Assembly (NCBI RefSeq): GCF_000757865.1
Contig: NZ_CP007754.1
Location: forward strand, 60,001-92,000
From: Prochlorococcus sp. MIT 0801
GTDB lineage: Bacteria; Cyanobacteriota; Cyanobacteriia; PCC-6307; Cyanobiaceae
Direction: 5' to 3'
DNA: 32,000 bases
How positions within the stretch are numbered: position 1 is the stretch's first letter; each line of letters opens with the position of its first letter. Under the pieces are notes generated by a model. It had not been told where the DNA came from. It was given only the letters and a program-made list of their open reading frames with translations, and made no database searches. A program made the position numbers and the translations under genes. Positions 5,954 through 30,433 of the stretch are shown here, one piece after another.

Positions 5954-7429
5954 ATGACAGAATCCAATGTTTCATGGGAAGTGGTAATCGGATTAGAGAC
6001 GCATGTGCAGTTGGGGACTAATAGCAAAATATTTACCAGCGCATCAACAAATTTTGGTGACGATCCAAATACTCATATCGACCCAGTTGTTTGCGGATTA
6101 CCAGGCACTTTACCAGTTTTAAATAAGAAGGTTTTGGAATATGCAGTAAAAGCAGCAATGGCTTTGAATCTAAATATTGCTTCTCATAGCAAATTTGATA
6201 GAAAGCAATATTTTTATCCAGACCTACCAAAAAACTATCAAATATCTCAGTTTGATGAACCTATTGCAGAAGATGGTTGGATAGAGGTAGAAGTGGCTGA
6301 AAAAGGCAAAGAAACTTATGTCAAAAAAATAGGTATTGAAAGACTACATATGGAGGAGGATGCGGGAAAACTTGTTCACGCAGGTAGTGATCAATTGTCA
6401 GGTTCCACACATTCTTTGGTTGATTACAATAGGGCAGGTGTGGCACTAGCTGAAATAGTTAGTAAACCTGATTTAAGAACAGGTAGAGAGGCTGCGGAAT
6501 ATGCAGCTGAGATTAGAAGAATAATGCGTTATTTGGGAGTATCTGATGGGAACATGCAGGAAGGTTCTTTGCGTTGTGATGTGAATATTTCAGTCAGACC
6601 GACTGTTAACGACCCATTTGGCACAAAAGTAGAAATAAAAAATATGAATTCATTTTCGGCTATTCAGAAAGCTTGTGAATATGAAATTAAACGGCAAATA
6701 AAAGCTTATGAATCCGGAGAAGAAGTAAAACAAGAAACGAGGTTATGGGATGAAGGTAAGCAACTGACTAAAAGTATGAGATCCAAAGAAGGCAGTAGCG
6801 ATTATCGTTATTTTCCTGATCCTGATTTAGGTCCGATAGAAGTCAGTAATGATTTAAAAGAAAAATGGCGTTCAGAATTACCAGAATTGCCAGCTGCAAA
6901 AAGAAATAGATATTCAGCAGAGCTCGGTCTTTCTATTTATGATGCACGAGTTTTGACTGATGAATCTTCAATGGCTAAATACTTTGAGAAAGTTGTTAAT
7001 GAAGGTGGGGCAGCAAAATCTTCAGCAAATTGGATAACAGGAGATATAGCAGCCTATATAAAGTCTAATAAATTATCATTTGATCAATTAACCTTTAAGC
7101 CAAATGAATTAGCAGAAATGTTAAAAATGATTGATTCTGGAGAAATAAGTGGAAAAATCGCGAAAGACATTTTACCTGAACTATTAAATAACGGTGGTTC
7201 CCCAAAGCAATTAGTCCAAGAACGTGGTTTAGGTATGATTGGTGATCCAAAAGTGATTGAAGAAATTATTGATCAATTGATCGTTAGGCATCCTAATGAG
7301 GTTGAATCTTTCAGGGCTGGGAAGAAGAAACTTTTAGGTTTTTTTGTTGGTCAATTAATGAAGGAAACAAAAGGGAAAGCGGATCCAAAACTCGCAAATC
7401 AAATATTAAATAAAAAATTACAAGGTTAG
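5954..7429 (+). CDS. gatB: Asp-tRNA(Asn)/Glu-tRNA(Gln) amidotransferase subunit B
   Basis: VIGLETHVQL, HMEEDAGKL and a C-terminal GatB/YqeY tail; 491 aa. Confidence 0.96.
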   Translation: MTESNVSWEVVIGLETHVQLGTNSKIFTSASTNFGDDPNTHIDPVVCGLPGTLPVLNKKVLEYAVKAAMALNLNIASHSKFDRKQYFYPDLPKNYQISQFDEPIAEDGWIEVEVAEKGKETYVKKIGIERLHMEEDAGKLVHAGSDQLSGSTHSLVDYNRAGVALAEIVSKPDLRTGREAAEYAAEIRRIMRYLGVSDGNMQEGSLRCDVNISVRPTVNDPFGTKVEIKNMNSFSAIQKACEYEIKRQIKAYESGEEVKQETRLWDEGKQLTKSMRSKEGSSDYRYFPDPDLGPIEVSNDLKEKWRSELPELPAAKRNRYSAELGLSIYDARVLTDESSMAKYFEKVVNEGGAAKSSANWITGDIAAYIKSNKLSFDQLTFKPNELAEMLKMIDSGEISGKIAKDILPELLNNGGSPKQLVQERGLGMIGDPKVIEEIIDQLIVRHPNEVESFRAGKKKLLGFFVGQLMKETKGKADPKLANQILNKKLQG

Positions 7430-9392: not shown

Positions 9393-9417
9393 AAATAAAA
9401 CACTAATAAAACAGTGA
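9393..9417 (+). repeat. B-repeat copy 1 (AAATAAAACACTAATAAAACAGTGA), followed by TTATGACTGGGATTTGG
   Basis: The same 25-mer recurs at 11998 and 12058, always within about 100 nt of an argJ-terminus copy. Confidence 0.75.
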
Positions 9418-9468
9418 CGTCGTTATGACTGGGATTTGGTCAAAAAAAGCGGTTTTTATTTTGGTGTT

Positions 9469-10587
9469 TTAAAAAAATGATGTCTCTATACCACTCTTTT
9501 CTTTGAGTTCGGCAAGAGAATGAACTTCTATTTTGGAAGTGTACCAATTTTCTGTTTTACCTTTAACTAGTCCAACTTCTGTTCTTAACCATTTTTTCAA
9601 TTTTTTCTCGATTGCCTCTAGTTCATTACCATCATGTGGTCCTTTTGTTTGAAGTTCACTCCAACCCCTATCAGAGTGATATCTAATTCTCTCTTTAATA
9701 TGATTGGTAATGCCAAATTGTTGTTCCCCTTCTCTTTTCATCAAATAAAACCAAGTAGGTTTATCAGGATCGAACCCATATTCCGCACAGGTACGACAAC
9801 CCGTTCCCTCCCTTGTTCTCTTGTCAACTGCTGCCTCCCAAGTATGTCCCTTTAGGCATTTCCATGGCATCTTTTTTTTACTACCAAAAAGCACAGTTGA
9901 CGGATCCCATCCATCTGCCTCCTTTGCAATCTCTGGACTCTTGCTCTGGAGGTCATTGAAACCAACACAAAGTTTTTTACCAGCGCAAAACGGACAACTG
10001 TTTCCGTTCTTGGTTCTTTTGTAAACAGATGCCTCCCACTTGTGTCCCTTAGCGCATTGCCAAGGCATTTTTTTTAAAGCACCAGCAAGCACAGTTGAAG
10101 GATCCCAACCATCTGCTTCTTTTGCAATTTTTGGAAACTTGGTTAGTAGGTCATTAAATCGAATCCATACTTTTCTATTCGCACAAAATGGACAACTACT
10201 CTTTTTTGCTCTAGTCCTTTGAGCAGGGGTATTAATCCATTTGTGTCCCTTTATGCATTTCCAAGATAATCGTTTAGAGGAACCTGCCGTAACATACGAA
10301 GGATCCCAACCATCTGCTTCTTTTGCAATTTCTGGAAACTTGGTTAGTAGGTCATTAAAACCCCTACAGATTTTATGTTGATTACTGCATACAGGACAGA
10401 CTGATCCCACTCGGGTTCTTTTATAAACCGATGCCTCCCATTTGTGTCCCTTTATGCATTTCCAAGATAATCGTTTAGAAGAACCTGAAACAACAGTAGA
10501 CGCATCCCACCCATCTGCCTCCGCTGCTACTTCAGGATGCAGCGTTAATAAATCATTTACACCAACAATTACTTTTTCTTGAAGCAT
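9469..10587 (-). CDS. Protein with four zinc-ribbon repeats (DUF4379-like) and a C-terminal GIY-YIG/T5orf172-like domain
   Basis: Four repeats of about 75 aa follow the pattern FNDLLTKFPEIAKEADGWDPS...WKC.KGHKWEA.V..RT....CP.C. The tail reads WFYLMKREGEQQFGITNHIKERIRYH. The DNA itself is internally repetitive. Confidence 0.7.
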   Translation of the reverse strand: MLQEKVIVGVNDLLTLHPEVAAEADGWDASTVVSGSSKRLSWKCIKGHKWEASVYKRTRVGSVCPVCSNQHKICRGFNDLLTKFPEIAKEADGWDPSYVTAGSSKRLSWKCIKGHKWINTPAQRTRAKKSSCPFCANRKVWIRFNDLLTKFPKIAKEADGWDPSTVLAGALKKMPWQCAKGHKWEASVYKRTKNGNSCPFCAGKKLCVGFNDLQSKSPEIAKEADGWDPSTVLFGSKKKMPWKCLKGHTWEAAVDKRTREGTGCRTCAEYGFDPDKPTWFYLMKREGEQQFGITNHIKERIRYHSDRGWSELQTKGPHDGNELEAIEKKLKKWLRTEVGLVKGKTENWYTSKIEVHSLAELKEKSGIETSFF

Positions 10588-11997: not shown

Positions 11998-12082
11998 AAA
12001 TAAAACACTAATAAAACGGTGATGGGGTTATGACTAGGTTTCGGGCGGTTTTAACAGAAATAAAACACTAATAAAACAGTAA
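11998..12082 (+). repeat. B-repeat copies 2 and 3 in tandem
   Basis: AAATAAAACACTAATAAAACGGTGA at 11998 is followed by TTATGACTAGGTTTCGG. AAATAAAACACTAATAAAACAGTAA at 12058 is followed by CTATGACTAAT. Confidence 0.75.
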
Positions 12083-12133
12083 TGACTTTCTTGAGATTGA
12101 CTGCTATGACTAATATTTTGTAGTTATATTTGT

Positions 12134-12658: not shown

Positions 12659-12882
12659 GTGTTTACATCCTCAACTTTTTTATTCCACCCCTGAAAACTT
12701 GAATTGGAATCGGGTGCTGGTTGTTCTCGAATGCCTTTTAACTTTTTCCATCTGATGTAGAGAGCGCCAAGCAACCAACTTTTAATTAATGACTTTGTAC
12801 CATTATTTAATTGGTTCTCTTGTTTCTTATTGAACTTTTCTGAATCAAGAAGTTCTTGTTTCCAATCTATTTCTTCAGTCAT
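12646..12882 (-). CDS. Cassette A gene 3, hypothetical 78-aa protein
   Basis: Paralogues lie at 24267..24506 and 30230..30433. It overlaps both neighbouring genes. Confidence 0.55.
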   Translation of the reverse strand: MTEEIDWKQELLDSEKFNKKQENQLNNGTKSLIKSWLLGALYIRWKKLKGIREQPAPDSNSSFQGWNKKVEDVNTCQS

Positions 12883-13057
12883 TGACTTTTGCTCTCAACT
12901 TGTAGAAGGTTTCTTCACATCGACAAGAAATACCTTTGTATTCATCTGGGAAAGATTTCATCCAAGTAGGAATACTCATCGTCACGGGATAACCACCTTT
13001 AATGTGAAAGACAACCTCTTTCTTTTTTGCGTCTATGAAATGCGGAGGAAGACTCAT
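12875..13057 (-). CDS. Cassette A gene 2, hypothetical 60-aa protein (CRCEETFYKLRAKVND tail)
   Basis: Paralogues lie at 24499..24678 and 30058..30237. By hand count, 9 of about 20 substituted codons between copies A and A' are synonymous in this frame, against 3 in the antisense frame. Confidence 0.55.
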   Translation of the reverse strand: MSLPPHFIDAKKKEVVFHIKGGYPVTMSIPTWMKSFPDEYKGISCRCEETFYKLRAKVND

Positions 13058-15279: not shown

Positions 15280-15389
15280 CTCCTGATCTATGTTATGCCA
15301 ATTGATTGTAGGGATTAATTTTTTGGTCATACTTTATTCACCTTTGATTTAAATCTATTTTTTTAGACTCTCTGCTCAAAGAACAATTA

Positions 15390-15525
15390 GTGAAGTTATT
15401 ACTGAGGTTCCAAGGGGAAACAGCCATTGGAGGTAACGGGGAAAAGCGGTGAAAATCCGCTACTGTCCCGCAGCTGTGAAGTATCGATATTCATCGATAT
15501 CAGTCAGAACGCCCGCCTTATTTCA
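15390..15525 (+). promoter_or_regulatory. Cobalamin (B12) riboswitch
   Basis: GGTTCCAAGGGGAAAC...GGTGAAAATCCGCTACTGTCCCGCAGCTGTGAAG...CAGTCAGAACGCCCGCC matches the conserved core and B12-box region as I remember them. It lies directly upstream of hupE. Confidence 0.8.
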
Positions 15526-15546
15526 CAATTCGACGAGGATCGATCT

Positions 15547-16179
15547 ATGACGTTTCCCTATTTTGGGCGTAAGCAATTTCTTGCAGCTTTTCTTCCACTC
15601 TTGTTTTGGTTGACTTTTTTAGTTGCTCCAGTGTTCGCTCATCACCCTTTTGGTATGGGAGATAGTGCTGGGCTGTCAGCCTGGCAAGCTCTGCTTAGTG
15701 GCATCGGGCACCCATTACTTGGACCTGATCATTTGCTTTTTATGTTAGGCATCGCCCTTCTTGGGATCAAAAAAACGAAGCAATGGGTGTTCCCTCTTTT
15801 AGTGGTTGGCTTGTTAGGTAGTGCATTAGTGCAGTTGCAGCCATTGCCTGATGTAATGTCTGCCTGGGCAGAAGCAGTTGTGTCTTTATCTTTAGCCATA
15901 GAGGGGTTAATTGTTCTAAATCTTTTGAGCTCAAAATGGCTATTGCCAATGTTCGCTTTACATGGCTATTTACTTGGAAGCACAATTGTTGGTGCTGAAC
16001 CGACTCCTCTCATAGGTTATTTTTTTGGTCTTCTTCTTGCACAAGGATCATTACTTTTAGTTGTAACAGCAACATCTCAAAAAGTGATCAAAAAGTTTGA
16101 TATTAATAGCCGTAATTTGGTGGCTGGTATTTGGATAGGTATAGGACTTGCCTTCTCTTGGGTTGCTATTATTCCATAG
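15547..16179 (+). CDS. hupE: HupE/UreJ-family metal (Co/Ni) transporter
   Basis: Signal-like N-terminus, then AHHPFGMG and GHPLLGPDHLLFMLG, with several TM helices. The tracked ORF start at 15427 runs through the riboswitch, so I prefer the ATG at 15547. Confidence 0.82.
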   Translation: MTFPYFGRKQFLAAFLPLLFWLTFLVAPVFAHHPFGMGDSAGLSAWQALLSGIGHPLLGPDHLLFMLGIALLGIKKTKQWVFPLLVVGLLGSALVQLQPLPDVMSAWAEAVVSLSLAIEGLIVLNLLSSKWLLPMFALHGYLLGSTIVGAEPTPLIGYFFGLLLAQGSLLLVVTATSQKVIKKFDINSRNLVAGIWIGIGLAFSWVAIIP

Positions 16180-16390: not shown

Positions 16391-19300
16391 TCAACCAAAC
16401 CCTGTCATTTCAGTAAAGAGAGCTTTGTTCTCGGCTGACTCTGCAAAGCCAAGCAGTGCTTCGTATCTTGTTTCAGCTCCGCTATTAAGTTGACCTAACC
16501 AATAAATCAAACCACTCGTATCAGCCTCACGACCTAAAACATTTTTATAGAGAGTATTGACATAGGTTGAATCAGATACATCTTCTCCATAGCGTTGTTT
16601 AAATTCTGCAGACCCTAAAAAGGAGGAGGCAACCACTCTGATTGTATTTCTACCAGAACTGAAATTATCAATCCAATACTTCAATCCATCCGCATCAGGA
16701 AGACGCTTGAAGGAAGCGTTATAGAGGCGGAACATACGACCTGAATCTGTATTTAAACCAGTGACTTGATCAAATGTGCCTTTGATATCTGCGATTGCAC
16801 TCACATCATGGAATGAACTTGTAGTTGCTTCTCCCGTAAATTGTAAGGATGGGTAGCCAGTGATGTCGTCATACCCAGAATCAGTTTTGATTTGATAAAC
16901 GCCATTACCTTTGTTGTAGAACTTATAATCACTAAATTTACCGCTATAAGTTTTAACAACGTCTACTTTTGATTCCTCTACGGTTTGATCAGAAAATTGA
17001 ATGTATTCAATATTTTTGAGCGTATCAGTTCCATCAGTTGTTCCTGTTGTTCGTTGATCCGCGATTTGTAAGGTGTCTGAGCCACGGGTAAAGGAGTACT
17101 TAGAGAAGCTGCCAGAGTAGACAATGGTGTCTGTACCCGCTTTCCCATCAATCGAGTCATTACTACTTGTGCTTTGTATAATGTCAGTGCTAGATGTTCC
17201 TGAGATTGTTGCTGTGAACTCTTCCAGATCATTAACTATAAGTGTGTTGTATAAATCAGGAGAAGTTAAACCTTTTGCATCAGTGACTCTGACAACAACT
17301 GTATAAGTACTTTGAGCCTCATAATCAGGTGAAGTCTTGATTTTTAATTGATTACCATCTATATAAAAATTACTGTTACCTGAACTTTCTACATAACCAC
17401 CAATTAAGGAAAATGTATGAGTATCTGATTGATCTTCATCTACTGCTGAAATAATGGCAACTGTTGAATCTGCAGCAATATTTTCGTCAAAGTAATAGGA
17501 GGAGAAGTTCCATGACGTAGGTGCTTCATTGAGATCCTTGACAGACAGAGTGAATGCTTCGGCATAGGTTTCACCACCACTATCAGTTGTTTGTAAGCGA
17601 ATCTTGTAGGAGGATTTTGTTTCGTAATCCGGAGAGGCTTTAATTTTTAAGGATGATCCATCAATCGTAAAGGAGCTGTTATCTGTATCATCAGTACCGG
17701 TGACTAAAGAGTAGGTATGCGTATCGGATGTATCATCATCTGTCGTAGAGAGAGTTGCGACCGTAGAAGCAGCAGCAATATTTTCATTAAAACTGCTTGA
17801 AGATAAGGTTAATGCTGTAGGTGTTTCATTGAGATCATTCACCGAGAGTGTGAAAGCTTTAGCGTAGGTTTCACCACCACTATCAGTGACTTGTAAGCGG
17901 ATATTGTAGGAAGACTTTGTCTCGTAATCAGGAGAAGAATTTATCTTTAAATATGTTATTGCTACTCCTTTATAGATGGTGAATAAACTGTTATCGGTGT
18001 CACCATTACCACTGATTAAAGAGTAGGTTCGTAGATCGGAAGTATCAGCATCTGTACTACCTATTGCCGAGACGATTGTAGAGGCAGCAATATTTTCATT
18101 GAAACTTGTTGAGATTAATCGAAGGTCTGTAGGCGCTTCATTAACATCGGCAATAGTAGTCTCAATCCATTGATTAGAAGAATTCCCAGCGAGGTCTGTC
18201 GCTTTTACATATATCGAATAAATGCCATTGGAATTGCTATCAAGATGATTTTCATAATCAGGAGCATTATTAAACGTTAATAGACCAGTAGTGGAATTAA
18301 TTGAAAAGAATGTGGGGTCATTTCCTCCATTAATTGACCAAGTAACAGCTTCGTTGGCAGTAAAGGTATGAACAGTTGTCGTATTCTCATTGATTGTTTT
18401 CTTACTATTTTCCGCACCAGCACTTCCTGAAGGACCCGTAATTAATGGTGCAGTTGTGTCTTCATTAACATCTGCAATGGTAACTTCAATCCATTGATTA
18501 GAAGAATTTCCAGCGAGGTCGGTTGCTTTTATATATATCGAATAAATGCCATTGGAATTGCTATCAATTTTATTTTCATAATCAGGAGCGTTATTAAATG
18601 TTAATAGACCAGTAGTGGAATTAATTGAAAAGAATGTGGGATCATTTCCTCCATTAATTGACCAAGTAACAGTTTCGTTGGCAGTAAAGGTATGAACAGT
18701 TGTCGTATTCTCATTGATTGTTTTCTTACTATTTTCCGCACCAGCACTTCCTGAAGGACCCGTAATTAATGGTGCAGTTGTGTCTTCATTAACATCTGCA
18801 ATGGTAACTTCAATCCATTGATTAGAAGAATTTCCAGCGAGGTCGGTTGCTTTTACATATATCGAATAAATGCCATTGGAATTGCTATCAAGATGATTTT
18901 CATAATCAGGAGCGTTATTAAATGTTAATTCACCAGTAGTGGAATTAATTGAAAAGAATGTTGGGTCATTTCCTCCACCAATGGACCAAGTAACAGCTTC
19001 GTTGGCAGTAAAGGTATGAACAGTTGTCGTATTCTCATTGATTGTTTTAAAGGACTCTGATGCTCCAGCACTTCCTGAAGGACCCGTAATTAATGGTGCA
19101 GTTGTGTCTTCATTAACATCTGCAATGGTAACTTCAATCCATTGATTAGAAGAATTCCCAGAGAGGTCGGTTGCTTTTACATATATCGAATAAATGCCAT
19201 TGGAATTGCTATCAAGATGATTTTCATAATCAGGAGCATCTTTAAATGTTAATAGACCAGTAGTGGAATTAATTGAAAAGAATGTGGGATCATTTCCTCC

Positions 19301-20512
19301 ATTAATTGACCAAGTAACAGTTTCGTTGGCAGTAAAGGTATGAACAGTTGTCGTATTCTCATTGATTGTTTTCTTACTATTTTCCGCACCAGCACTTCCT
19401 GAAGGACCAGTGATTAATGGTGCTGTTGTGTCTTCATTAACATCTGCAATGGTAACTTCAATCCATTGATTAGAAGAATTCCCAGAGAGGTCGGTTGCTT
19501 TTACATATATCGAATAAATGCCATTGGAATTGCTATCAAGATGATTTTCATAATCAGGAGCGTTATTAAATGTTAATTCACCAGTACTAGAATTAATTGA
19601 AAAGAATGTGGGGTCATTTCCTCCATTAATTGACCAAGTAACAGTTTCGTTAGCAGTAAATCTATGAACACTTGTCGTGTTTTCATTAATGGTTTTAGAG
19701 GACTCTGATGCTCCAGCACTTCCTGAAGGACCCGTAATTAATGGTGCAGTTGTGTCTGCTGTTGAGTCTTCATCACCCCATAAACTCTTTAATGCTTCAA
19801 TGTCTACAAGAGAAAACCATGATTGATATTTACCCCATTCATCAGGGGCTCCATATGCCATCGCTGTTTCTTCTACTGTCGTAGAATATGTTGTGCCATA
19901 AACATCTCCATCGTTATTACTAAACGGATGCTCTAAATGAAGTGCATGACCTAATTCATGAAGAATTAAATGTTCCCAGAAATTACTTCCTTTATTTTTA
20001 TAATGATCATTATTCTTTGAAGTCAATGCAACTTCATGATTCATATATCCTAAAGAATCTGTTTCAGGATTCATTTGACCAGCATAACTAGATCCTGTTG
20101 TTGCATATGTATGTTCATAGATACTTATATTGGCATCTGTTCTATTAAATACGTATTGAAAATCTACACCTAAAATATCATCTAATTTAGCTATTGTTTC
20201 TTTTATAAAATCTATTCTATACGAAGGCATATTAAGAGCATCTATATAATAATTGTTATAAGTAGTTGAAACTCCCTCAGTATCAATCCATATATTAATT
20301 GTATTATTATTTATTTTAACGTTATCGTACCAACTTGAATCTTGTGTTAGATGATAATATTTAAGGCCAGAAGTTTGAGTAGTATTATTACTATTACTAT
20401 TACTATTACTATTATTATTTGAATTTAGAGTATTAAATGAATCAGATAAATTTACTTCACTATGAAGCAAGGAGATCAGTTCTGGATTAGAAGAATTGCA
20501 TAGAAAACACAA
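16391..20512 (-). CDS. Giant secreted/surface-type protein: metzincin protease domain, 5+3 cadherin-like repeats, RTX-like/DUF4214-like C-terminus
   Basis: HELGHALHLEH (HExxHxxGxxH) at 19928-19960. There are five near-identical 108-aa repeats with cadherin-like F.I...TG.L.....DYE and V.D.NE, then three diverged cadherin-like repeats. The C-terminal roughly 265 aa is shared with 20855..22546. The start is uncertain: TTG at 20512, and no ATG for about 90 codons. Confidence 0.8.
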   Translation of the reverse strand: MCFLCNSSNPELISLLHSEVNLSDSFNTLNSNNNSNSNSNSNNTTQTSGLKYYHLTQDSSWYDNVKINNNTINIWIDTEGVSTTYNNYYIDALNMPSYRIDFIKETIAKLDDILGVDFQYVFNRTDANISIYEHTYATTGSSYAGQMNPETDSLGYMNHEVALTSKNNDHYKNKGSNFWEHLILHELGHALHLEHPFSNNDGDVYGTTYSTTVEETAMAYGAPDEWGKYQSWFSLVDIEALKSLWGDEDSTADTTAPLITGPSGSAGASESSKTINENTTSVHRFTANETVTWSINGGNDPTFFSINSSTGELTFNNAPDYENHLDSNSNGIYSIYVKATDLSGNSSNQWIEVTIADVNEDTTAPLITGPSGSAGAENSKKTINENTTTVHTFTANETVTWSINGGNDPTFFSINSTTGLLTFKDAPDYENHLDSNSNGIYSIYVKATDLSGNSSNQWIEVTIADVNEDTTAPLITGPSGSAGASESFKTINENTTTVHTFTANEAVTWSIGGGNDPTFFSINSTTGELTFNNAPDYENHLDSNSNGIYSIYVKATDLAGNSSNQWIEVTIADVNEDTTAPLITGPSGSAGAENSKKTINENTTTVHTFTANETVTWSINGGNDPTFFSINSTTGLLTFNNAPDYENKIDSNSNGIYSIYIKATDLAGNSSNQWIEVTIADVNEDTTAPLITGPSGSAGAENSKKTINENTTTVHTFTANEAVTWSINGGNDPTFFSINSTTGLLTFNNAPDYENHLDSNSNGIYSIYVKATDLAGNSSNQWIETTIADVNEAPTDLRLISTSFNENIAASTIVSAIGSTDADTSDLRTYSLISGNGDTDNSLFTIYKGVAITYLKINSSPDYETKSSYNIRLQVTDSGGETYAKAFTLSVNDLNETPTALTLSSSSFNENIAAASTVATLSTTDDDTSDTHTYSLVTGTDDTDNSSFTIDGSSLKIKASPDYETKSSYKIRLQTTDSGGETYAEAFTLSVKDLNEAPTSWNFSSYYFDENIAADSTVAIISAVDEDQSDTHTFSLIGGYVESSGNSNFYIDGNQLKIKTSPDYEAQSTYTVVVRVTDAKGLTSPDLYNTLIVNDLEEFTATISGTSSTDIIQSTSSNDSIDGKAGTDTIVYSGSFSKYSFTRGSDTLQIADQRTTGTTDGTDTLKNIEYIQFSDQTVEESKVDVVKTYSGKFSDYKFYNKGNGVYQIKTDSGYDDITGYPSLQFTGEATTSSFHDVSAIADIKGTFDQVTGLNTDSGRMFRLYNASFKRLPDADGLKYWIDNFSSGRNTIRVVASSFLGSAEFKQRYGEDVSDSTYVNTLYKNVLGREADTSGLIYWLGQLNSGAETRYEALLGFAESAENKALFTEMTGFG
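18134..19753 (-). repeat. Five tandem 324-bp coding repeats (108 aa each)
   Basis: The unit starts with TTAPLITGPSGSAGA and ends with IADVNED. The period of 324 nt was read directly from recurring strings at about 18140, 18464, 18787, 19111 and 19436. Confidence 0.9.
20384..20419 (-). repeat. Hexanucleotide microsatellite (ATTACT)4 plus ATTATT variants, encoding NSNSNSNSN
   Basis: Read directly from the sequence. It lies in the 5' region of the giant gene. Confidence 0.85.
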
Positions 20513-20854: not shown

Positions 20855-22546
20855 TTATCCGAAACCTGTCATTTCAGTGAAGAGAGCTTTGTTTTCTGCT
20901 GATTCAGCAAACCCTAAAAGCAACTCATATCTCGTCTCTAAACCACTATTCAAGTTTCCTAACCAATAGTTATAACCTTCTTGGTCATATTCCCTACCTA
21001 AAACATTGACATAGAGAGTTTCAACATACTTAGCGTTCGTAACATCTTCACCATAGCGTTGTTTAAATTCAGCAGAAACAAGAAAGGATGATGCCACTGC
21101 TCTATCATCATTTTCTCCAGATGTGTATTTGCCTATCCAGTACTTCAATCCATCAGAATCTGGAAGCCTTTTAAAAGCAGCGTTATAGAGACGGAACATC
21201 TTTGCGTCTTTTGTATTTAACCCAGTTACTTGATCAAATGTTCCTTTAATATCAACAATGGCACTGATATCTCTAAATGAGCTGGTTGTTGATTCTCCTG
21301 TAAATGTTAATAATGGTAGTCCTGTGATGTCATCAGTTGTTCCTGAGTTTGATTTAATCTCATATGATCCATTACCTTTATTGTAGAATTTATAATCACT
21401 AAAAATACCGCTATAGTTTTTAATAACGTCTACTTTTGATTCTTCTACTGTCTGATCAGAGAACTGAATGTATTCGATATTTTTTAGAGTATCGGTACCA
21501 TCATTTGTTGCGGTTGTTCTTTGATCTGCGATTTGTAGTGTGTCAGTACTACGTGTAAAGGAATAATCAGCAAATTTTGATGAATAAATACAAGTATCGG
21601 AACCTGCCCCACCATCAATTACATCATTTCCACCAGACCCTGTAATTGAATCTGCTCCATCTAGTGCATTGATTTCATTTGCCTCACTTGTTCCATTAAT
21701 AATGTCTGATGAATCAGTGGCTGAATTAGAAGTAAAGGTAAGCTCGGCTGCTACTAGTGAATATTCGCGATCTCCGAGAATTGATAGCGATGAGCTCATT
21801 ATAAGTCTCCATTTATTTGCCGAGTTAGAAAATAGTAGTCCAGTTGGATCAAGATAACTCTTTTCTGGAGGAGCCAAATTTGTCTCATTTATTTCCCAGG
21901 TGAGCCCATCATTAGAGACTCCAACATAAATTCCTTGGGATTGATCTGGAAGTGTTACAGGTGAGGAAGACATTATTGCTATCCAATCATTGTCCTCTGC
22001 TTTTAAAACCTCAAAGTCAACATATCCCCCTTCCACTCTTTTCCCTGAATCTACTAAAAAGTTTGTTCCTTTTGTAGTTGTTGAAGTTGCACTGAGGATA
22101 ACTTCATTGGCTAGTGTGGTCGCTTCAGTATCTGATTTTACCCAGTATATTCTCACTCTTCCATCTGGAAGAACAACTGAATCCGGCACACCCCAAGCCT
22201 CATCACCGTTGTGTGAGATACCTGTTGATGAAACTCCAGACAGACTTAATCCATCCTTTGAGATTAATGCTGTAAAAATTTCATGTTTCCCCGAATTAGG
22301 GTCCACTTCTATGTAATAGGCTCTACGTATTCCTTCTGTGGTGGTAACAATTGTAAGGTCTTGTATGAAATTAATTTGTCCTTCTTGGGTTAATTTAAGA
22401 TTAGTAGACATTGCAGCAATCGTTACTCCACCATTGCCGGTGTAATAGAGTTGATATGCTTCACCACTATTGTCTACATCATTTTCCAGGTGAGGACTGA
22501 CACCAAGTGTGTCAAGTTCTTGAATATTCTTAAGTGACCAAGTCAT
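20855..22546 (-). CDS. Asp-box (BNR)/beta-propeller-like protein with RTX-like repeat and DUF4214-like C-terminus
   Basis: SNDGLTW (SxDxGxTW Asp-box) and GSGGNDVIDGGAGSDT (GGxGxD). The C-terminal roughly 265 aa is paralogous to the giant protein and ends identically in FAESAENKALFTEMTGFG. Confidence 0.7.
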   Translation of the reverse strand: MTWSLKNIQELDTLGVSPHLENDVDNSGEAYQLYYTGNGGVTIAAMSTNLKLTQEGQINFIQDLTIVTTTEGIRRAYYIEVDPNSGKHEIFTALISKDGLSLSGVSSTGISHNGDEAWGVPDSVVLPDGRVRIYWVKSDTEATTLANEVILSATSTTTKGTNFLVDSGKRVEGGYVDFEVLKAEDNDWIAIMSSSPVTLPDQSQGIYVGVSNDGLTWEINETNLAPPEKSYLDPTGLLFSNSANKWRLIMSSSLSILGDREYSLVAAELTFTSNSATDSSDIINGTSEANEINALDGADSITGSGGNDVIDGGAGSDTCIYSSKFADYSFTRSTDTLQIADQRTTATNDGTDTLKNIEYIQFSDQTVEESKVDVIKNYSGIFSDYKFYNKGNGSYEIKSNSGTTDDITGLPLLTFTGESTTSSFRDISAIVDIKGTFDQVTGLNTKDAKMFRLYNAAFKRLPDSDGLKYWIGKYTSGENDDRAVASSFLVSAEFKQRYGEDVTNAKYVETLYVNVLGREYDQEGYNYWLGNLNSGLETRYELLLGFAESAENKALFTEMTGFG

Positions 22547-24279: not shown

Positions 24280-24506
24280 AAGTTTGTATCTTCAATTTTT
24301 TTATTCCACTCCTGAAAACTTGAACTGCAATTAGGCATTTCTGGATCTGGTCTGATACCTTTCAACTTTTTCCATCTGAGGTAGAGAGCGCCAAGCAACC
24401 AATTATCAGTTAATGACTTTGTACGATTTTTTAATAGGTTTTCTTGTTTCTTATTGAAATTTTCCGAATCAAGCAGTTCTTGTTTCCAATCTATTTTTTC
24501 AGTCAT
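24267..24506 (-). CDS. Cassette A' gene 3 (paralogue of 12646..12882)
   Basis: 79 aa, overlapping both neighbouring genes. Confidence 0.55.
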   Translation of the reverse strand: MTEKIDWKQELLDSENFNKKQENLLKNRTKSLTDNWLLGALYLRWKKLKGIRPDPEMPNCSSSFQEWNKKIEDTNLCQS

Positions 24507-24671
24507 TGACTTTTGCCCTCAACTTGTAGAAGGTTTCTTCACACCGACAAGAAACTCCCTTGTAGTGATCTGGGAAAGATTTCATCCAAGTAAGAATTGC
24601 CATTGTCACGGGATCACCTTTGATGTAAAAAACAACCTCTTTGTTTTTCTCATCTATGAAATAGGGAGGAA
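24323..24671 (-). repeat. Left arm of a 349-bp near-perfect inverted repeat
   Basis: It is the reverse complement of 30065..30413. I found a single substitution by eye (TAC versus CAC codon). Confidence 0.85.
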
Positions 24672-24678
24672 TATTCAT
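24499..24678 (-). CDS. Cassette A' gene 2 (paralogue of 12875..13057)
   Basis: MNIPPYFIDEKNKEVVFYIKGDPV... I chose the internal ATG at 24678 by alignment with the other two copies. Confidence 0.5.
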   Translation of the reverse strand: MNIPPYFIDEKNKEVVFYIKGDPVTMAILTWMKSFPDHYKGVSCRCEETFYKLRAKVND

Positions 24679-24869: not shown

Positions 24870-25121
24870 TCATGCTGATTCCTTCTCATCAAAATTAGGA
24901 ACCGTCAATACATCATCTATTTCTTCAGAAATCGGGTTATACATCCACTCACCCATTTCACATAGAAGATGGAACCTGTCTTGAGGGTTGAGAGTTTTCA
25001 TTTTCTCGCAAGCATTCACCACACATTCATCCATTGCATTCATTATTTCTGTCTTCTTGCTCATACCTCTATCAACACACATTATGTTCAACAATAATTC
25101 TTCGGAAGGTTGATCAAGCAA
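24870..25121 (-). CDS. Hypothetical protein
   Basis: Open frame only. It overlaps the end of the recombinase remnant by 8 nt. Confidence 0.3.
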   Translation of the reverse strand: MLDQPSEELLLNIMCVDRGMSKKTEIMNAMDECVVNACEKMKTLNPQDRFHLLCEMGEWMYNPISEEIDDVLTVPNFDEKESA

Positions 25122-25640
25122 GTCCAGTTTGTTTCCTAATTGAACGATAATAACAACCTTCGTATCTTAAACGCAAAACCAAACTTTCTTTCTCATCATT
25201 TGTCTTTGGTCTGCCTCCAATATTTCCTCCTATTTCTCTTCTATGGTTAATGCTCTCTTGAGTTCTCTCAATCACCATCTGATGCTCTACTTCTCCCAGG
25301 CCAGATAAAAGACCAATGATGATTGGAGCAAACTTTCCAAGTGCTCTGGTATTAATCATTCCATCCGTTGTCCTTACATGAATGCCTTTCTCTTGAAGGT
25401 CGTAAAGAGTATTGATGCACTGCCTCTGATTTCTAAAACCCCTATCCAATTTGGTGAATACGATTTCTTCCCCTTCCTCAAAGGTTCCTAATGCTGCCTC
25501 GAGTTGTGGTCTTGCTTTATCCGCACTTGAGACAGTCTCCTGAAAAACAACAACGCAACCTCTTCAACTTGAGCAACAATAGAGATTTGTTTATTGGCGA
25601 ACTTCCTCGTATAGCCGATGCACTTGTATTCAAGTCTGTC
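25114..25640 (-). pseudogene. Small serine recombinase (resolvase/invertase family), decayed
   Basis: GCVVVFQETVSSADKARPQLEAALGTFEEGEEIVFTKLDRGFRN...GEVEHQMVIERTQESINHRREIGGNIGGRPK fits the resolvase core. The N-terminal IGYTRKFANKQ lies in another frame and has RKFA where the catalytic RVST-type serine is expected. The C-terminal HTH is truncated. Confidence 0.65.
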
Positions 25641-25850
25641 TCTAAACAGTAGTTTTCCTCTGGTGAACTTCTTTTTTATTGACCTGTTCTAGAAACTATG
25701 GTGTTTCTTATTGAATTACGTATGTAATTATCCTGCCAACCAAACAGTCTTTGAGTTTGATTACCACACCCTTTTTGGAACACAAATTTTTTCCAATATT
25801 TAAGATATTATTTTTGTTATTGCCATCTTGGTCTTGGATATATAAGAATG

Positions 25851-25915
25851 GGAATACAGAACAACTCCTCACACATAGTTCTGTGCCAAAAGAGCATCCA
25901 ATAGGGTGCTTTTTT
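25851..25915 (+). ncRNA. Yfr1-like sRNA candidate
   Basis: The undecamer ACTCCTCACAC lies at 25864-25874. It is flanked by the stem ACAGAAC/GTTCTGT and followed by an intrinsic terminator (GCATCC-AATA-GGGTGC plus T6). A TATATA/TATAAG -10 candidate lies at 25839-25846. Confidence 0.5.
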
Positions 25916-25983
25916 AGTGCCTGTGCCAATCAATAAACCCTCCTGTTAAGGATTTATTCTTAATCCTCTTCCGGTAAATTCTG

Positions 25984-26078
25984 TGTGTGAGGAGTTGAGA
26001 TCCTCCGCAGTGGAAACAAGGAAACACTTGCGCCTGATCTCACAAAGAAACCGCCTAACAGAACTAGGCGGCTTTTTT
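25984..26078 (+). ncRNA. Yfr2-family-like sRNA candidate
   Basis: The 5' TGTGTGAGGAGTTG (25984-25997) is complementary to the Yfr1 motif. GGAAACAAGGAAAC follows, then a terminator (CCGCCTA-N7-TAGGCGG plus T6). A TAAATT -10 candidate lies at 25975. The length of about 94 nt fits the family. Confidence 0.5.
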
Positions 26079-26142
26079 GTGCCTAACGAAAGACACCGTT
26101 AAGTAAAATTACTTATAATATGTTATGAATTTAAATTTATAG

Positions 26143-26232
26143 ATGATCAAGAAGTACCCCTTCCTTCCTTTCTTTATCTTTACTGCTTTTGTTGCAGGTA
26201 CCGCAACAATTGGTCTTCCAGTATTTGCTTGA
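26143..26232 (+). CDS. Hypothetical 29-aa hydrophobic peptide
   Basis: MIKKYPFLPFFIFTAFVAGTATIGLPVFA. Open frame only. Confidence 0.2.
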   Translation: MIKKYPFLPFFIFTAFVAGTATIGLPVFA

Positions 26233-26379
26233 GTTGGTTAATTTTTCTAGAAAAATATATTTATAAATGACCATTTTTAACTACAAAGTCCTACGTTCTA
26301 ATACGTCAAGCAATTCAGTTATTATCTGAATTGCTTGTTATAAGATTAGATAAATCTTTTGTTTTTAATAGAGATAAAT

Positions 26380-26683
26380 ATGAGCAATATGAATCCAACC
26401 ATTAGTTCTAACTGCGGTTATTCTCTCTCCAATAGCAGATGGAGATCATCACATCCATAATTTTCCTTACACTCATCGCATGTATTGCAGACCAACTCAC
26501 CATCAAGTATTAGTTTCTCGCAGTTATCGAACAAGCGGAGTCAGTTGTCGTTCTGCTATTTCAACTACAGGGTGATTGATTAGAAGTGGTCTTGCCGCAG
26601 CAATTTCCAAGAAATATGCTTCCGCATGATCTATTCCTCTAGGTGCTGTTCTAGGTATGGGTATTGCAAACGCTGATTGCTAA
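26380..26683 (+). pseudogene. Possible gene remnant spread over several frames (glycine-zipper-like C-terminus)
   Basis: MSNMNPTISSNCGYSLSNS / DGDHHIHNFPYTHRMYC... / LIRSGLAAAISKKYASA / SIPLGAVLGMGIANADC are consecutive pieces in different frames. Confidence 0.2.
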
Positions 26684-27158
26684 TTAGGAATTTATCCTGA
26701 TGCAGACTCTTTGAGGGTTTGAGTAGAAAGCAAAAGCAGAACAAATCCTTACCAGTGTTAGTTCTGTTAACACAGAGAGAAAGGGACTCAAGGTCGCTGA
26801 AGCAGCAGGGTCCCTTTCTTCATGCCATGAAAAAAGGGGTTTTGTCTCATGTTCTTCTGAGCCAGATTTGTTTGGAATGAATTAGGAGTTCTAACACTTC
26901 CCTTCCAGCAAAGGGTTAGCAAGGAAATGCCTGAATTTTCTAAATGATACAAAAGTGCTGAACTCGAAAGGGGCGATACAAACTCGCCCCTTCTTAATGT
27001 CAAAAAATGATGACCAGAGCAACTAGACAGAAAAAGTATGTTTTATTAGTTTGATCCCCGTCGCAAACGCAAGCAAGCAAAGCAGGAGTGAGCGGTGCTT
27101 TTTTTATCTCTACTTCGTCATCCCTCTGATTACTGACTTCACCAGAATCTTTATAGGA

Positions 27159-27491
27159 ATGAATCCACCATCAGATATCAGTTACATGAATGAAGAAGCA
27201 AGAGAAGCACGTCCAACTCCTTCAGATTGCTTAATCGCTCGAACTAAAGATTTTATTCTTCTTCCTATCCGTGACAAGAAATCTGTGATGGTTTCTCCGA
27301 CTGTCTTTAATAAACTTTGGTTTTGCGCTGAAGAAGGTATTCCAACCAAATTAAAGAACACAAGAAGACTTGACTACGAAGGTGCTCATGAGAAACTGAG
27401 ATCCTTGGTAAAGGTAGAAAGATCAAACCAGCAGAGGAATGTCTTAGGTGGGTTGGATCAAGTTAGATTTACACTTTTCCACTTTATATAG
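27159..27491 (+). CDS. Hypothetical protein
   Basis: Open frame. I prefer the ATG at 27159 because the upstream part of the tracked ORF runs through a T-tract hairpin at about 27090-27117. Confidence 0.35.
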   Translation: MNPPSDISYMNEEAREARPTPSDCLIARTKDFILLPIRDKKSVMVSPTVFNKLWFCAEEGIPTKLKNTRRLDYEGAHEKLRSLVKVERSNQQRNVLGGLDQVRFTLFHFI

Positions 27492-30057: not shown

Positions 30058-30237
30058 ATGAGTCTTCCTCCCTATTTCATAGATGAGAAAAACAAAGAGG
30101 TTGTTTTTCACATCAAAGGTGATCCCGTGACAATGGCAATTCTTACTTGGATGAAATCTTTCCCAGATCACTACAAGGGAGTTTCTTGTCGGTGTGAAGA
30201 AACCTTCTACAAGTTGAGGGCAAAAGTCAATGACTGA
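30058..30237 (+). CDS. Cassette A'' gene 2 (inverted copy)
   Basis: MSLPPYFIDEKNKEVVFHIKGDPV...AKVND. It is below the ORF-track cutoff. Its upstream 75 nt match copy A, not copy A'. Confidence 0.5.
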   Translation: MSLPPYFIDEKNKEVVFHIKGDPVTMAILTWMKSFPDHYKGVSCRCEETFYKLRAKVND

Positions 30238-30413
30238 AAAAATAGATTGGAAACAAGAACTGCTTGATTCGGAAAATTTCAATAAGAAACAAGAAAACCT
30301 ATTAAAAAATCGTACAAAGTCATTAACTGATAATTGGTTGCTTGGCGCTCTCTACCTCAGATGGAAAAAGTTGAAAGGTATCAGACCAGATCCAGAAATG
30401 CCTAATTGCAGTT
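30065..30413 (+). repeat. Right arm of the 349-bp near-perfect inverted repeat
   Basis: It is the reverse complement of 24323..24671. Confidence 0.85.
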
Positions 30414-30433
30414 TCAACGTTCAAGAAAGATAA
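30230..30433 (+). pseudogene. Cassette A'' gene 3, 3'-truncated at the repeat boundary
   Basis: The first 61 aa are identical to 24267..24506. The sequence then diverges (FNVQER*), and gene 4 is absent. Confidence 0.5.

Follow-up and report, generated by a model that had tools for sequence, protein, structure and literature searches.

We analysed a 32,000-nt stretch of the genome of Prochlorococcus sp. MIT 0801 (contig NZ_CP007754.1, positions 60,001 to 92,000 of the forward strand), hereafter called the window, whose own positions are used throughout. An earlier note on this DNA had proposed that it harbours an extra Yfr1/Yfr2 pair of small RNA (sRNA) genes. The locus contains two adjacent putative sRNA genes on the plus strand, hereafter called unit 1 and unit 2, which we assign to the Yfr10-like and Yfr2 types, respectively, and a degenerate third element lies further downstream. 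The sequence features, predicted folds, family matches and conservation of this cassette were computed here. The tandem itself comprises the following features:

25820-25849, plus strand: promoter-like site of unit 1 (TTGCCA, 18-nt spacer, AAGAAT), with 9 of 12 matches in a consensus scan and a putative function
25854-25915, plus strand: unit 1, a Yfr10-like sRNA gene, from its fold, Rfam and a covariance model of our own called R1
25916-25983, plus strand: spacer between units 1 and 2, with a -10-like box and a half palindrome, from alignments
25981-26078, plus strand: unit 2, a Yfr2-family sRNA gene, from the Rfam family Cyano-1, a terminator scan and its fold

The tandem sRNA genes

Unit 1 harbours an exact copy of the undecamer ACTCCTCACAC common to Yfr1 and Yfr10, at positions 25864-25874 of the plus strand. 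In the predicted fold, the undecamer is held in a 15-nt loop, AACUCCUCACACAUA, closed by an 8-bp stem (25855-25862 with 25878-25885) in which ACAGAAC (25856-25862) pairs with GTTCTGT (25878-25884). A terminator made of a 12-bp hairpin and a six-T run follows (25888-25915). The undecamer, the flanking ACAGAAC/GTTCTGT and the terminator had been described in the earlier note, and they are borne out. The minimum free energy (MFE) of unit 1 is -22.2 kcal/mol (z = -4.85). With at most one mismatch, the undecamer has two sites in the window, one per strand, corresponding to units 1 and 2, compared with 0.24 expected from shuffled sequences. Upstream of unit 1, a TAGAAA/TAAGAAT box is kept at the position of the promoter-like site in an alignment of relatives of the same hairpin type, hereafter called LLI-type after the low-light clade in which they are found (see below).

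When compared with all 4227 Rfam families, unit 1 has its best match with Yfr10 (RF02362), over the full length of the model, at 24.4 bits (E 0.23). In the consensus of this family, a terminator follows a hairpin whose loop displays ACUCCUCACACAC, a layout shared by unit 1; the Rfam seed was presumably taken from high-light strains. Our R1 model, built from 24 LLI-type units only, scores unit 1 at 80.6 bits. As with Yfr10, unit 1 is located directly 5' of a Yfr2 homologue on the same strand, the Cyano-1 match starting 66 nt past its T-run, and the CAGAA/UUCUG stem around the motif is common to unit 1 and MED4 Yfr10 (Lambrecht 2019, Table S4). Unit 1 is Yfr10-like and not a copy of Yfr1.

The earlier note had taken unit 1 for an additional and possibly mobile copy of Yfr1, itself a core sRNA gene, and the exact undecamer, the length of 62 nt, which falls in the 54-69-nt range of Yfr1, and the adjoining recombinase pseudogene are in keeping with that view. 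However, Yfr1 is defined by a motif located in a 16-20-nt unpaired stretch between two stem-loops, in RNAs of 54-69 nt (Voss 2007, PMC2190773), whereas the motif of unit 1 is enclosed by the 8-bp stem and no stem-loop is found on its 5' side. The location of the motif in a loop, regarded in the earlier note as an oddity of this Yfr1 copy, is what defines Yfr10, a distinct family already published. The gene order guaB, yfr1, trxA is found in all Prochlorococcus having Yfr1, including the LLI strains NATL1A and NATL2A (Voss 2007, PMC2190773), and by analogy with these relatives the canonical guaB-yfr1-trxA locus is presumably present in the source genome; neither guaB nor trxA is among the open reading frames (ORFs) of the 32-kb window. 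A sensitive scan of 501 nt (25700-26200), performed without a genuine Yfr1 as positive control, yielded no match to Rfam Yfr1 at E<=10, and in its CAGAA/UUCUG stem, in the layout of its terminator and in its position ahead of Yfr2, unit 1 fits Yfr10 and not MED4 Yfr1. On the basis of motif architecture, synteny and the Rfam scan, we rejected the Yfr1 identity of unit 1, which we regard as highly improbable. Unit 1 shares with canonical Yfr1 an identical ACUCCUCACAC, a similar length and, presumably, the same partner, the 5' end of Yfr2, but it differs by the placement of the motif in a hairpin loop and by its neighbours, a recombinase pseudogene on one side and Yfr2 on the other.

Unit 2 belongs to the Yfr2 family, in agreement with the earlier note: Cyano-1 (RF01701), the Rfam family that covers Yfr2, matches it at 66.1 bits for a threshold of 41 (E 1.1e-09), over positions 1-69 of the 69 of the model. 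Its 5' anti-motif TGTGTGAGGAGTTG (25984-25997) begins 68 nt past the T-run of unit 1, close to the distance of about 70 nt first reported, and it is the exact reverse complement of positions 25862-25875. This segment is unpaired in the MFE fold, as is typical of the single-stranded 5' GUGUGAGGAG-type motif of Yfr2, and GGAAACAAGGAAAC (26012-26025) sits in the loop of the first stem-loop. Unit 2 has its own terminator (26051-26071), with a T-run to 26078. Counted from the anti-motif it is 95 nt long (25984-26078), within the range of ~89-95 nt given for Yfr2 RNAs (PMC2190773), which have an intrinsic terminator. Judging from their sequences and predicted folds, both units look like genuine sRNA genes, as had been suggested.

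The spacer between the two units contains a -10-like box, TAAATT (25975-25980). In the alignments, all LLI-type loci have a -10-like hexamer that stops 5 nt short of TGTGAGGAG, and the unit 2 transcript may thus start near 25986-25988. Two extra GU repeats peculiar to the window are possibly outside the Yfr2 transcript. The window spacer also carries a half copy (CTGTGCCAATCAA) of a palindrome that is found in full (CAATTGGCACATGTGACAGTTG) in some relatives.

Predicted pairing and known systems

The complementary motifs are exposed in both units, in the loop of unit 1 and at the unpaired 5' end of unit 2, and the perfect complementarity over 14 nt that had been pointed out (25984-25997 with 25862-25875) is exact. 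The predicted intermolecular helix is longer than first claimed, with 17 bp comprising 14 Watson-Crick pairs, one G.U and two more, for a duplex energy of -30.3 kcal/mol. Cofolding of units 1 and 2 gives -71.7 kcal/mol, compared with -22.2 and -30.5 kcal/mol for each alone. When the unit 1 loop was scanned against 65 gene starts in the window, the mean duplex energy was -6.8 kcal/mol (sd 3.0) and the best was -12.8 kcal/mol, compared with -30.3 kcal/mol for Yfr2, yielding no convincing mRNA target among these genes; the gene for an outer membrane protein (OMP) near the cassette does not stand out in that scan. Among the tandems compared, the 14-nt perfect complement of the window is the longest: it usually reaches 10-12 nt in LLI-type tandems (CAACUCCUCACA) and only 5-9 uninterrupted nt in high-light tandems, because of a bulged C, as noted for MED4.

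Such tandems have precedents. In MED4, Yfr10 displays the undecamer in a loop, and its gene, in genomic island 1, immediately precedes that of Yfr2 in the same orientation; a 270-nt joint Yfr10+Yfr2 precursor was detected, Yfr12-Yfr4 and Yfr18-Yfr5 were described as parallel pairs, and base pairing was proposed (Steglich 2008, PMC2518516). Yfr10 homologues were found at that time only in high-light strains (Steglich 2008, PMC2518516). Experimental work then demonstrated binding of Yfr2 to Yfr1 and Yfr10, whose action on ppa and PMM1121 it blocks, and showed that pairing shields Yfr2 from RNase E (Lambrecht 2019, PMC6778093). The same study placed Yfr10 homologues upstream of Yfr2 homologues in high-light strains and described Yfr10-like RNAs in SS120, WH8102 and MIT9313 (Yfr104) (Lambrecht 2019, PMC6778093). 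In MED4 the two RNAs accumulate separately and have distinct triggers, darkness in the case of Yfr10 and high light and nitrogen stress in that of Yfr2 (PMC6778093). Because the island tandem was described in 2008 and the interaction was shown in 2019, the arrangement in the window is not the new, extra pair that the earlier note had envisaged.

The window resembles the MED4 Yfr10-Yfr2 locus in gene order, strand and island-like context, in the hairpin, whose CAGAA/UUCUG stem closes the loop with the undecamer, in the terminator that follows it, and in the location of Yfr2, 110-160 nt downstream and endowed with a complementary single-stranded 5' end. Unlike MED4 Yfr10, the LLI-type unit has an ACAGAAC/GUUCUGU stem, a shifted loop, a different terminator and a sub-threshold Rfam Yfr10 score, and its pairing with Yfr2 is uninterrupted (10-12 nt, 14 in the window), whereas that of MED4 contains a bulged C and a mismatch. 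The order of Yfr10 upstream of Yfr2 was reported by both studies for high-light strains only, unlike the tandem described here. As for the Yfr10-like sRNAs of SS120, WH8102 and MIT9313, unit 1 represents an additional Yfr1-motif sRNA outside the high-light strains. The probe for the Yfr10-like RNA of SS120 has no match in the window within 3 mismatches; its reverse complement and the terminator loop of unit 1 have TCCAATAGGG in common.

By analogy with MED4, the Yfr10-like RNA would display the conserved motif in its hairpin loop and base-pair with mRNAs through that loop. The single-stranded 5' end of Yfr2 (…GUGAGGAGUUG) would pair with the same loop, and Yfr2 is thus proposed to act as a sponge or antagonist that frees the targets of Yfr10 (and Yfr1). 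Pairing would hide the Yfr2 5' end from RNase E, and the second conserved motif of Yfr2, in the loop of its first stem-loop, would stay available for targets of its own. The location of the genes side by side, with possible co-transcription, may favour the encounter of both RNAs. Read-through of the first terminator would produce one RNA of ~225 nt (25854-26078), which is predicted to fold with a 16-bp intramolecular helix between motif and anti-motif (-80 kcal/mol, z -6.2). With a probability of roughly 0.85, we read the locus as a plus-strand cassette of independently terminated sRNA genes, Yfr10-like, Yfr2 and a degenerate Yfr10-like paralogue, with a mechanism like that of MED4; transcription, RNA ends, pairing in vivo, targets and regulatory outcome are the parts of this reading that we infer.

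The Yfr10-Yfr2 tandem would thereby extend from high-light Prochlorococcus to the low-light clade LLI, the Yfr1/Yfr10-Yfr2 pairing being among the few antagonisms between sRNAs that have experimental support in cyanobacteria. In the LLI cassette pairing would be uninterrupted, and a third, variant-motif sRNA-like gene is often included; the perfectly complementary pair would make a clean test system for how the strength of sRNA-sRNA pairing tunes the network. As the current Rfam Yfr10 model misses the LLI genes, picocyanobacterial genomes and metatranscriptomes would be better annotated with a broader seed. The LLI members leave current views on the working of the system unchanged, and the practical gains are modest. 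The novelties are incremental: pairing without interruption, a third variant element that is conserved, and a linked recombinase.

Conservation, third element and recombinase

A scan of genome contigs with a motif-hairpin pattern yielded at least 120 loci with 124 hairpins; these loci are designated by L numbers where necessary. Among the matches listed, all come from Prochlorococcus or Synechococcaceae except for one Nostoc metagenome-assembled genome (L087), 100 of the 124 hairpins are followed on the same strand by a Yfr2 core within 450 nt, and three hairpin subtypes can be distinguished, two from high-light strains, one of which is the MED4 Yfr10 type, and the type of the window. The latter, (A/U)ACAGAAC-AACUCCUCACA-(A)UAGUUCUGU, has 26 instances among these matches, including the window. 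It is present in single-cell genomes and in the complete genomes of two clade LLI strains (PMC12675747), MIT1012 and MIT0916; the latter has two copies. Unit 1 of MIT0916 (L037) is identical to that of the window except for the first two bases.

A Cyano-1 match above threshold lies beside the unit in 17 of 20 LLI-type loci, with scores of 49-66 bits in the relatives. Homology to relatives that lack the recombinase runs from ~25785 to 26084, indicating that the conserved block corresponds to both genes and the promoter of unit 1. This sRNA block is common to 17 loci, compared with 0-10 for the flanks, and within it the spacer between the two units is poorly conserved and variable in length. In the 24 LLI-type units, 98.1% of the alignment cells are paired in the two-helix structure, compared with 46-57% when the partners are slid, and compensatory or wobble series are found in the outermost stem pair (A-U, U.G, U-A) and in the terminator (C-G, U.G, U-A). 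R1 recovers 91 high-light units at 29-43 bits from loci pre-selected by the hairpin pattern, including one (L119) nearly identical to MED4 Yfr10; in the R1-based alignment of the high-light units, 93.7% of the cells are paired and 16 of the 20 pairs have changed on both sides. A MAFFT alignment of high-light and low-light units together offset the stem arms, and the pair counts were taken from the model-based alignments instead.

Several LLI-type contigs (L051, L058, L040 and L088) carry two or three cassettes, indicating that the module has been locally amplified. Two Yfr10-like/Yfr2 modules are arranged head to tail on the minus strand of L051 (122-602), with Yfr10-like starts ~420 nt apart, and L058 has three Cyano-1 genes within 8 kb. 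In L066, a locus that also contains the end of an rRNA operon, a Glutamine-II riboswitch (7186-7248, minus strand) is found ~440 nt upstream of the Yfr10-like/Yfr2 cassette.

Two further features flank the tandem:

26734-26819, plus strand: degenerate Yfr10-like hairpin with a terminator-like stem, from R1, its fold and its conservation
25078-25679, minus strand: serine recombinase (resolvase/invertase) pseudogene, divergent from unit 1, from Pfam Resolvase and tblastn

The third element is the second match of R1 in the window when filters are off, at 33.3 bits (E 2.9e-05). It consists of a GCAGAAC/GUUCUGU stem around a mutated motif, CAAAUCCUUACC, with a weak T-run and a TAGAAA box upstream, and it folds at -33.7 kcal/mol (z -3.81). 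Nine LLI-type loci keep such an element ~180 nt downstream of Yfr2 on the same strand, with AACUCCUUACC or ACUCCUCAAC as its loop. The C-to-U change in the loop of the relatives would still allow wobble pairing with a G of Yfr2, as was noted for Yfr12 of MED4 (Steglich 2008, PMC2518516), which this degenerate third copy recalls. The window element has one further, C-to-A change in its loop that is found only there, and the gap that separates it from Yfr2 has ~600 extra nt (26085-26680), compared with the ~180 nt of the relatives. The 26085-26680 segment holds a promoter-like site (26090-26119) and a 29-codon hydrophobic ORF (26144-26233, MIKKYPFLPFFIFTAFVAGTATIGLPVFA), and parts of it recur elsewhere in other loci. 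In the relatives the third element is followed by a DUF1651 gene (27051-27491 in the window), and it could therefore also be the leader of that gene. A decayed second Yfr2 downstream of the third element, suspected by eye (TTAGGAGTT...GCAAGGAAATG), was dropped, as the Rfam Cyano-1 model gave no match there even at E<=10.

In the recombinase pseudogene, the Pfam Resolvase match covers only the C-terminal half of the domain. A tblastn comparison with the intact, 209-aa homologue of MIT0916 showed that the start codon is lost, that a frameshift is present near residue 42 together with an in-frame stop, and that GYARQST of the homologue has become GYTRKFA. The earlier note had described an accessory region with recombinase remnants on both sides; the region is indeed accessory-like and contains this pseudogene upstream, but the downstream ORFs tested yielded no other remnant. 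In six loci, one of which has a high-light-type unit, a small serine recombinase is encoded divergently at 180-500 nt from the hairpin. Its homologues, intact or partial, are found in MIT0916 (L092, 352-981), L051 (840-1463), L071 (211-822), L064 and the high-light-type L113 (4086-4646), with 57-96% amino-acid identity to the MIT0916 protein and 57-68% for the diverged copies. Approximately 100 tandem pairs have no recombinase in their 8-kb locus.

Inverted repeats of 369 nt, 98% complementary and 5379 nt apart (24310-24678 and 30058-30426), bound a 5.4-kb segment that encloses the recombinase pseudogene, the sRNA cassette, the DUF1651 ORF, the beta-barrel OMP gene and a cupin gene. The repeat arm occurs a third time (88%) at 12717-12994, and the arms encode small ORFs. 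The 5.4-kb segment may be able to invert, or the arms may be no more than paralogues within the island. Together with the recombinase, the inverted repeats hint at recombinase-linked rearrangement. It is quite unlikely that a small serine-recombinase element carries the LLI sRNA trio (Yfr10-like, Yfr2 and variant Yfr10) as cargo or recombines at it; if one did, transfer, duplication or inversion between genomic islands would affect the sRNA/anti-sRNA pair as one cassette. Of the mobility first suspected, what is left is a hint, the divergent recombinase that is intact in relatives; the hairpin pattern has no match in viral contigs, and nothing points to phage carriage.

Alternative explanations and the surrounding region

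Several points weigh against reading the locus as a functional Yfr10-like/Yfr2 cassette. The Rfam score of unit 1, 24.4 bits, is below the Yfr10 gathering threshold of 43. Because the search pattern fixed five stem pairs and the motif in the comparative set, those columns do not provide independent support, and the independent structural signal is that of the outer stem pairs and the terminator. The RNA ends of both units were placed from sequence features, and if unit 2 starts at its likely site, the separate Yfr2 RNA may carry only ~11-12 of the 14 complementary bases. CGRE1, the GntR/PMM1637 site that drives Yfr2 induction, is located ~55-57 nt upstream of some, but not all, yfr2 genes, and regular expressions built from its text description only matched 0 of 103 Yfr2 upstream regions. 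Finally, as the recombinase is dead and the third element degenerate, some decay of the locus is possible.

It is unlikely that the main product is one co-transcript of ~225 nt whose helix serves for processing or self-sequestration, the RNAs being made or kept inactive together. The fold of the read-through RNA and the 270-nt precursor of MED4 are consistent with this possibility, and, given the likely start of unit 2, only a read-through RNA has all 14-17 complementary bases. However, unit 1 ends with a strong 12-bp terminator and a six-T run, the -10-like box of unit 2 is conserved in all relatives, the MED4 RNAs accumulate separately in response to different stimuli, and the spacer that a joint transcript would include is poorly conserved and of variable length. 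A decaying, unexpressed relic in a degrading island would account for the lesions of the recombinase pseudogene, the additional motif mutation in the third element of the window and the ~600 nt inserted upstream of it, but we find it very unlikely: units 1 and 2 have kept all their structural features, unit 1 differs from its MIT0916 counterpart by its first two bases, unit 2 scores as high as any relative (66.1 versus 49-66 bits), and no other segment of the region is as well conserved as the sRNA genes.

Invertases act on short inverted repeats, and the 14-17-nt complementary segments might accordingly be a DNA crossover or inversion site of the serine recombinase and not RNA motifs, in line with the divergent resolvase/invertase-type gene of the six loci, diverged copies included. 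This explanation is barely credible, as the ~100 tandem pairs devoid of a recombinase have the same motifs, unit 2 is an Rfam-confirmed sRNA, and the RNA stems and terminators show compensatory changes. In addition, the repeat of the high-light strains is broken by the bulge at the DNA level (5-9 nt perfect), yet the RNA interaction was shown experimentally (PMC6778093).

The window has a G+C content of 35-38%, and its core genes (alaS, speA, ndk, gatB, coaE and argJ) give way to a patchwork of small ORFs and paralogous repeats with a giant repeat protein. Directly after argJ, at the start of the variable region, a gene on the minus strand (9469-10587) codes for a 372-aa protein with four DUF4379 treble-clef zinc-finger repeats, visible as DNA repeats of 198-201 nt. 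A 47-nt direct repeat (AAATAAAACACTAATAAAACAGTGA...) present three times just downstream of argJ (9393-9439, 11998-12044 and 12058-12104) may mark an island boundary or an insertion scar. Further into the region, the minus strand encodes a 1373-aa protein with five tandem repeats of 324 nt (16391-20512) and a 563-aa paralogue (20855-22546) that has the C-terminal region in common with it; both look like the large secreted or surface proteins typical of hypervariable islands. A cobalamin riboswitch (15388-15534, plus strand; Rfam 60.9 bits for a threshold of 31.5) is located immediately upstream of, or overlaps, an ORF for a membrane protein of the HupE/UreJ family (15427-16179), an arrangement suggestive of B12 control over a metal (cobalt or nickel) transporter within the island.

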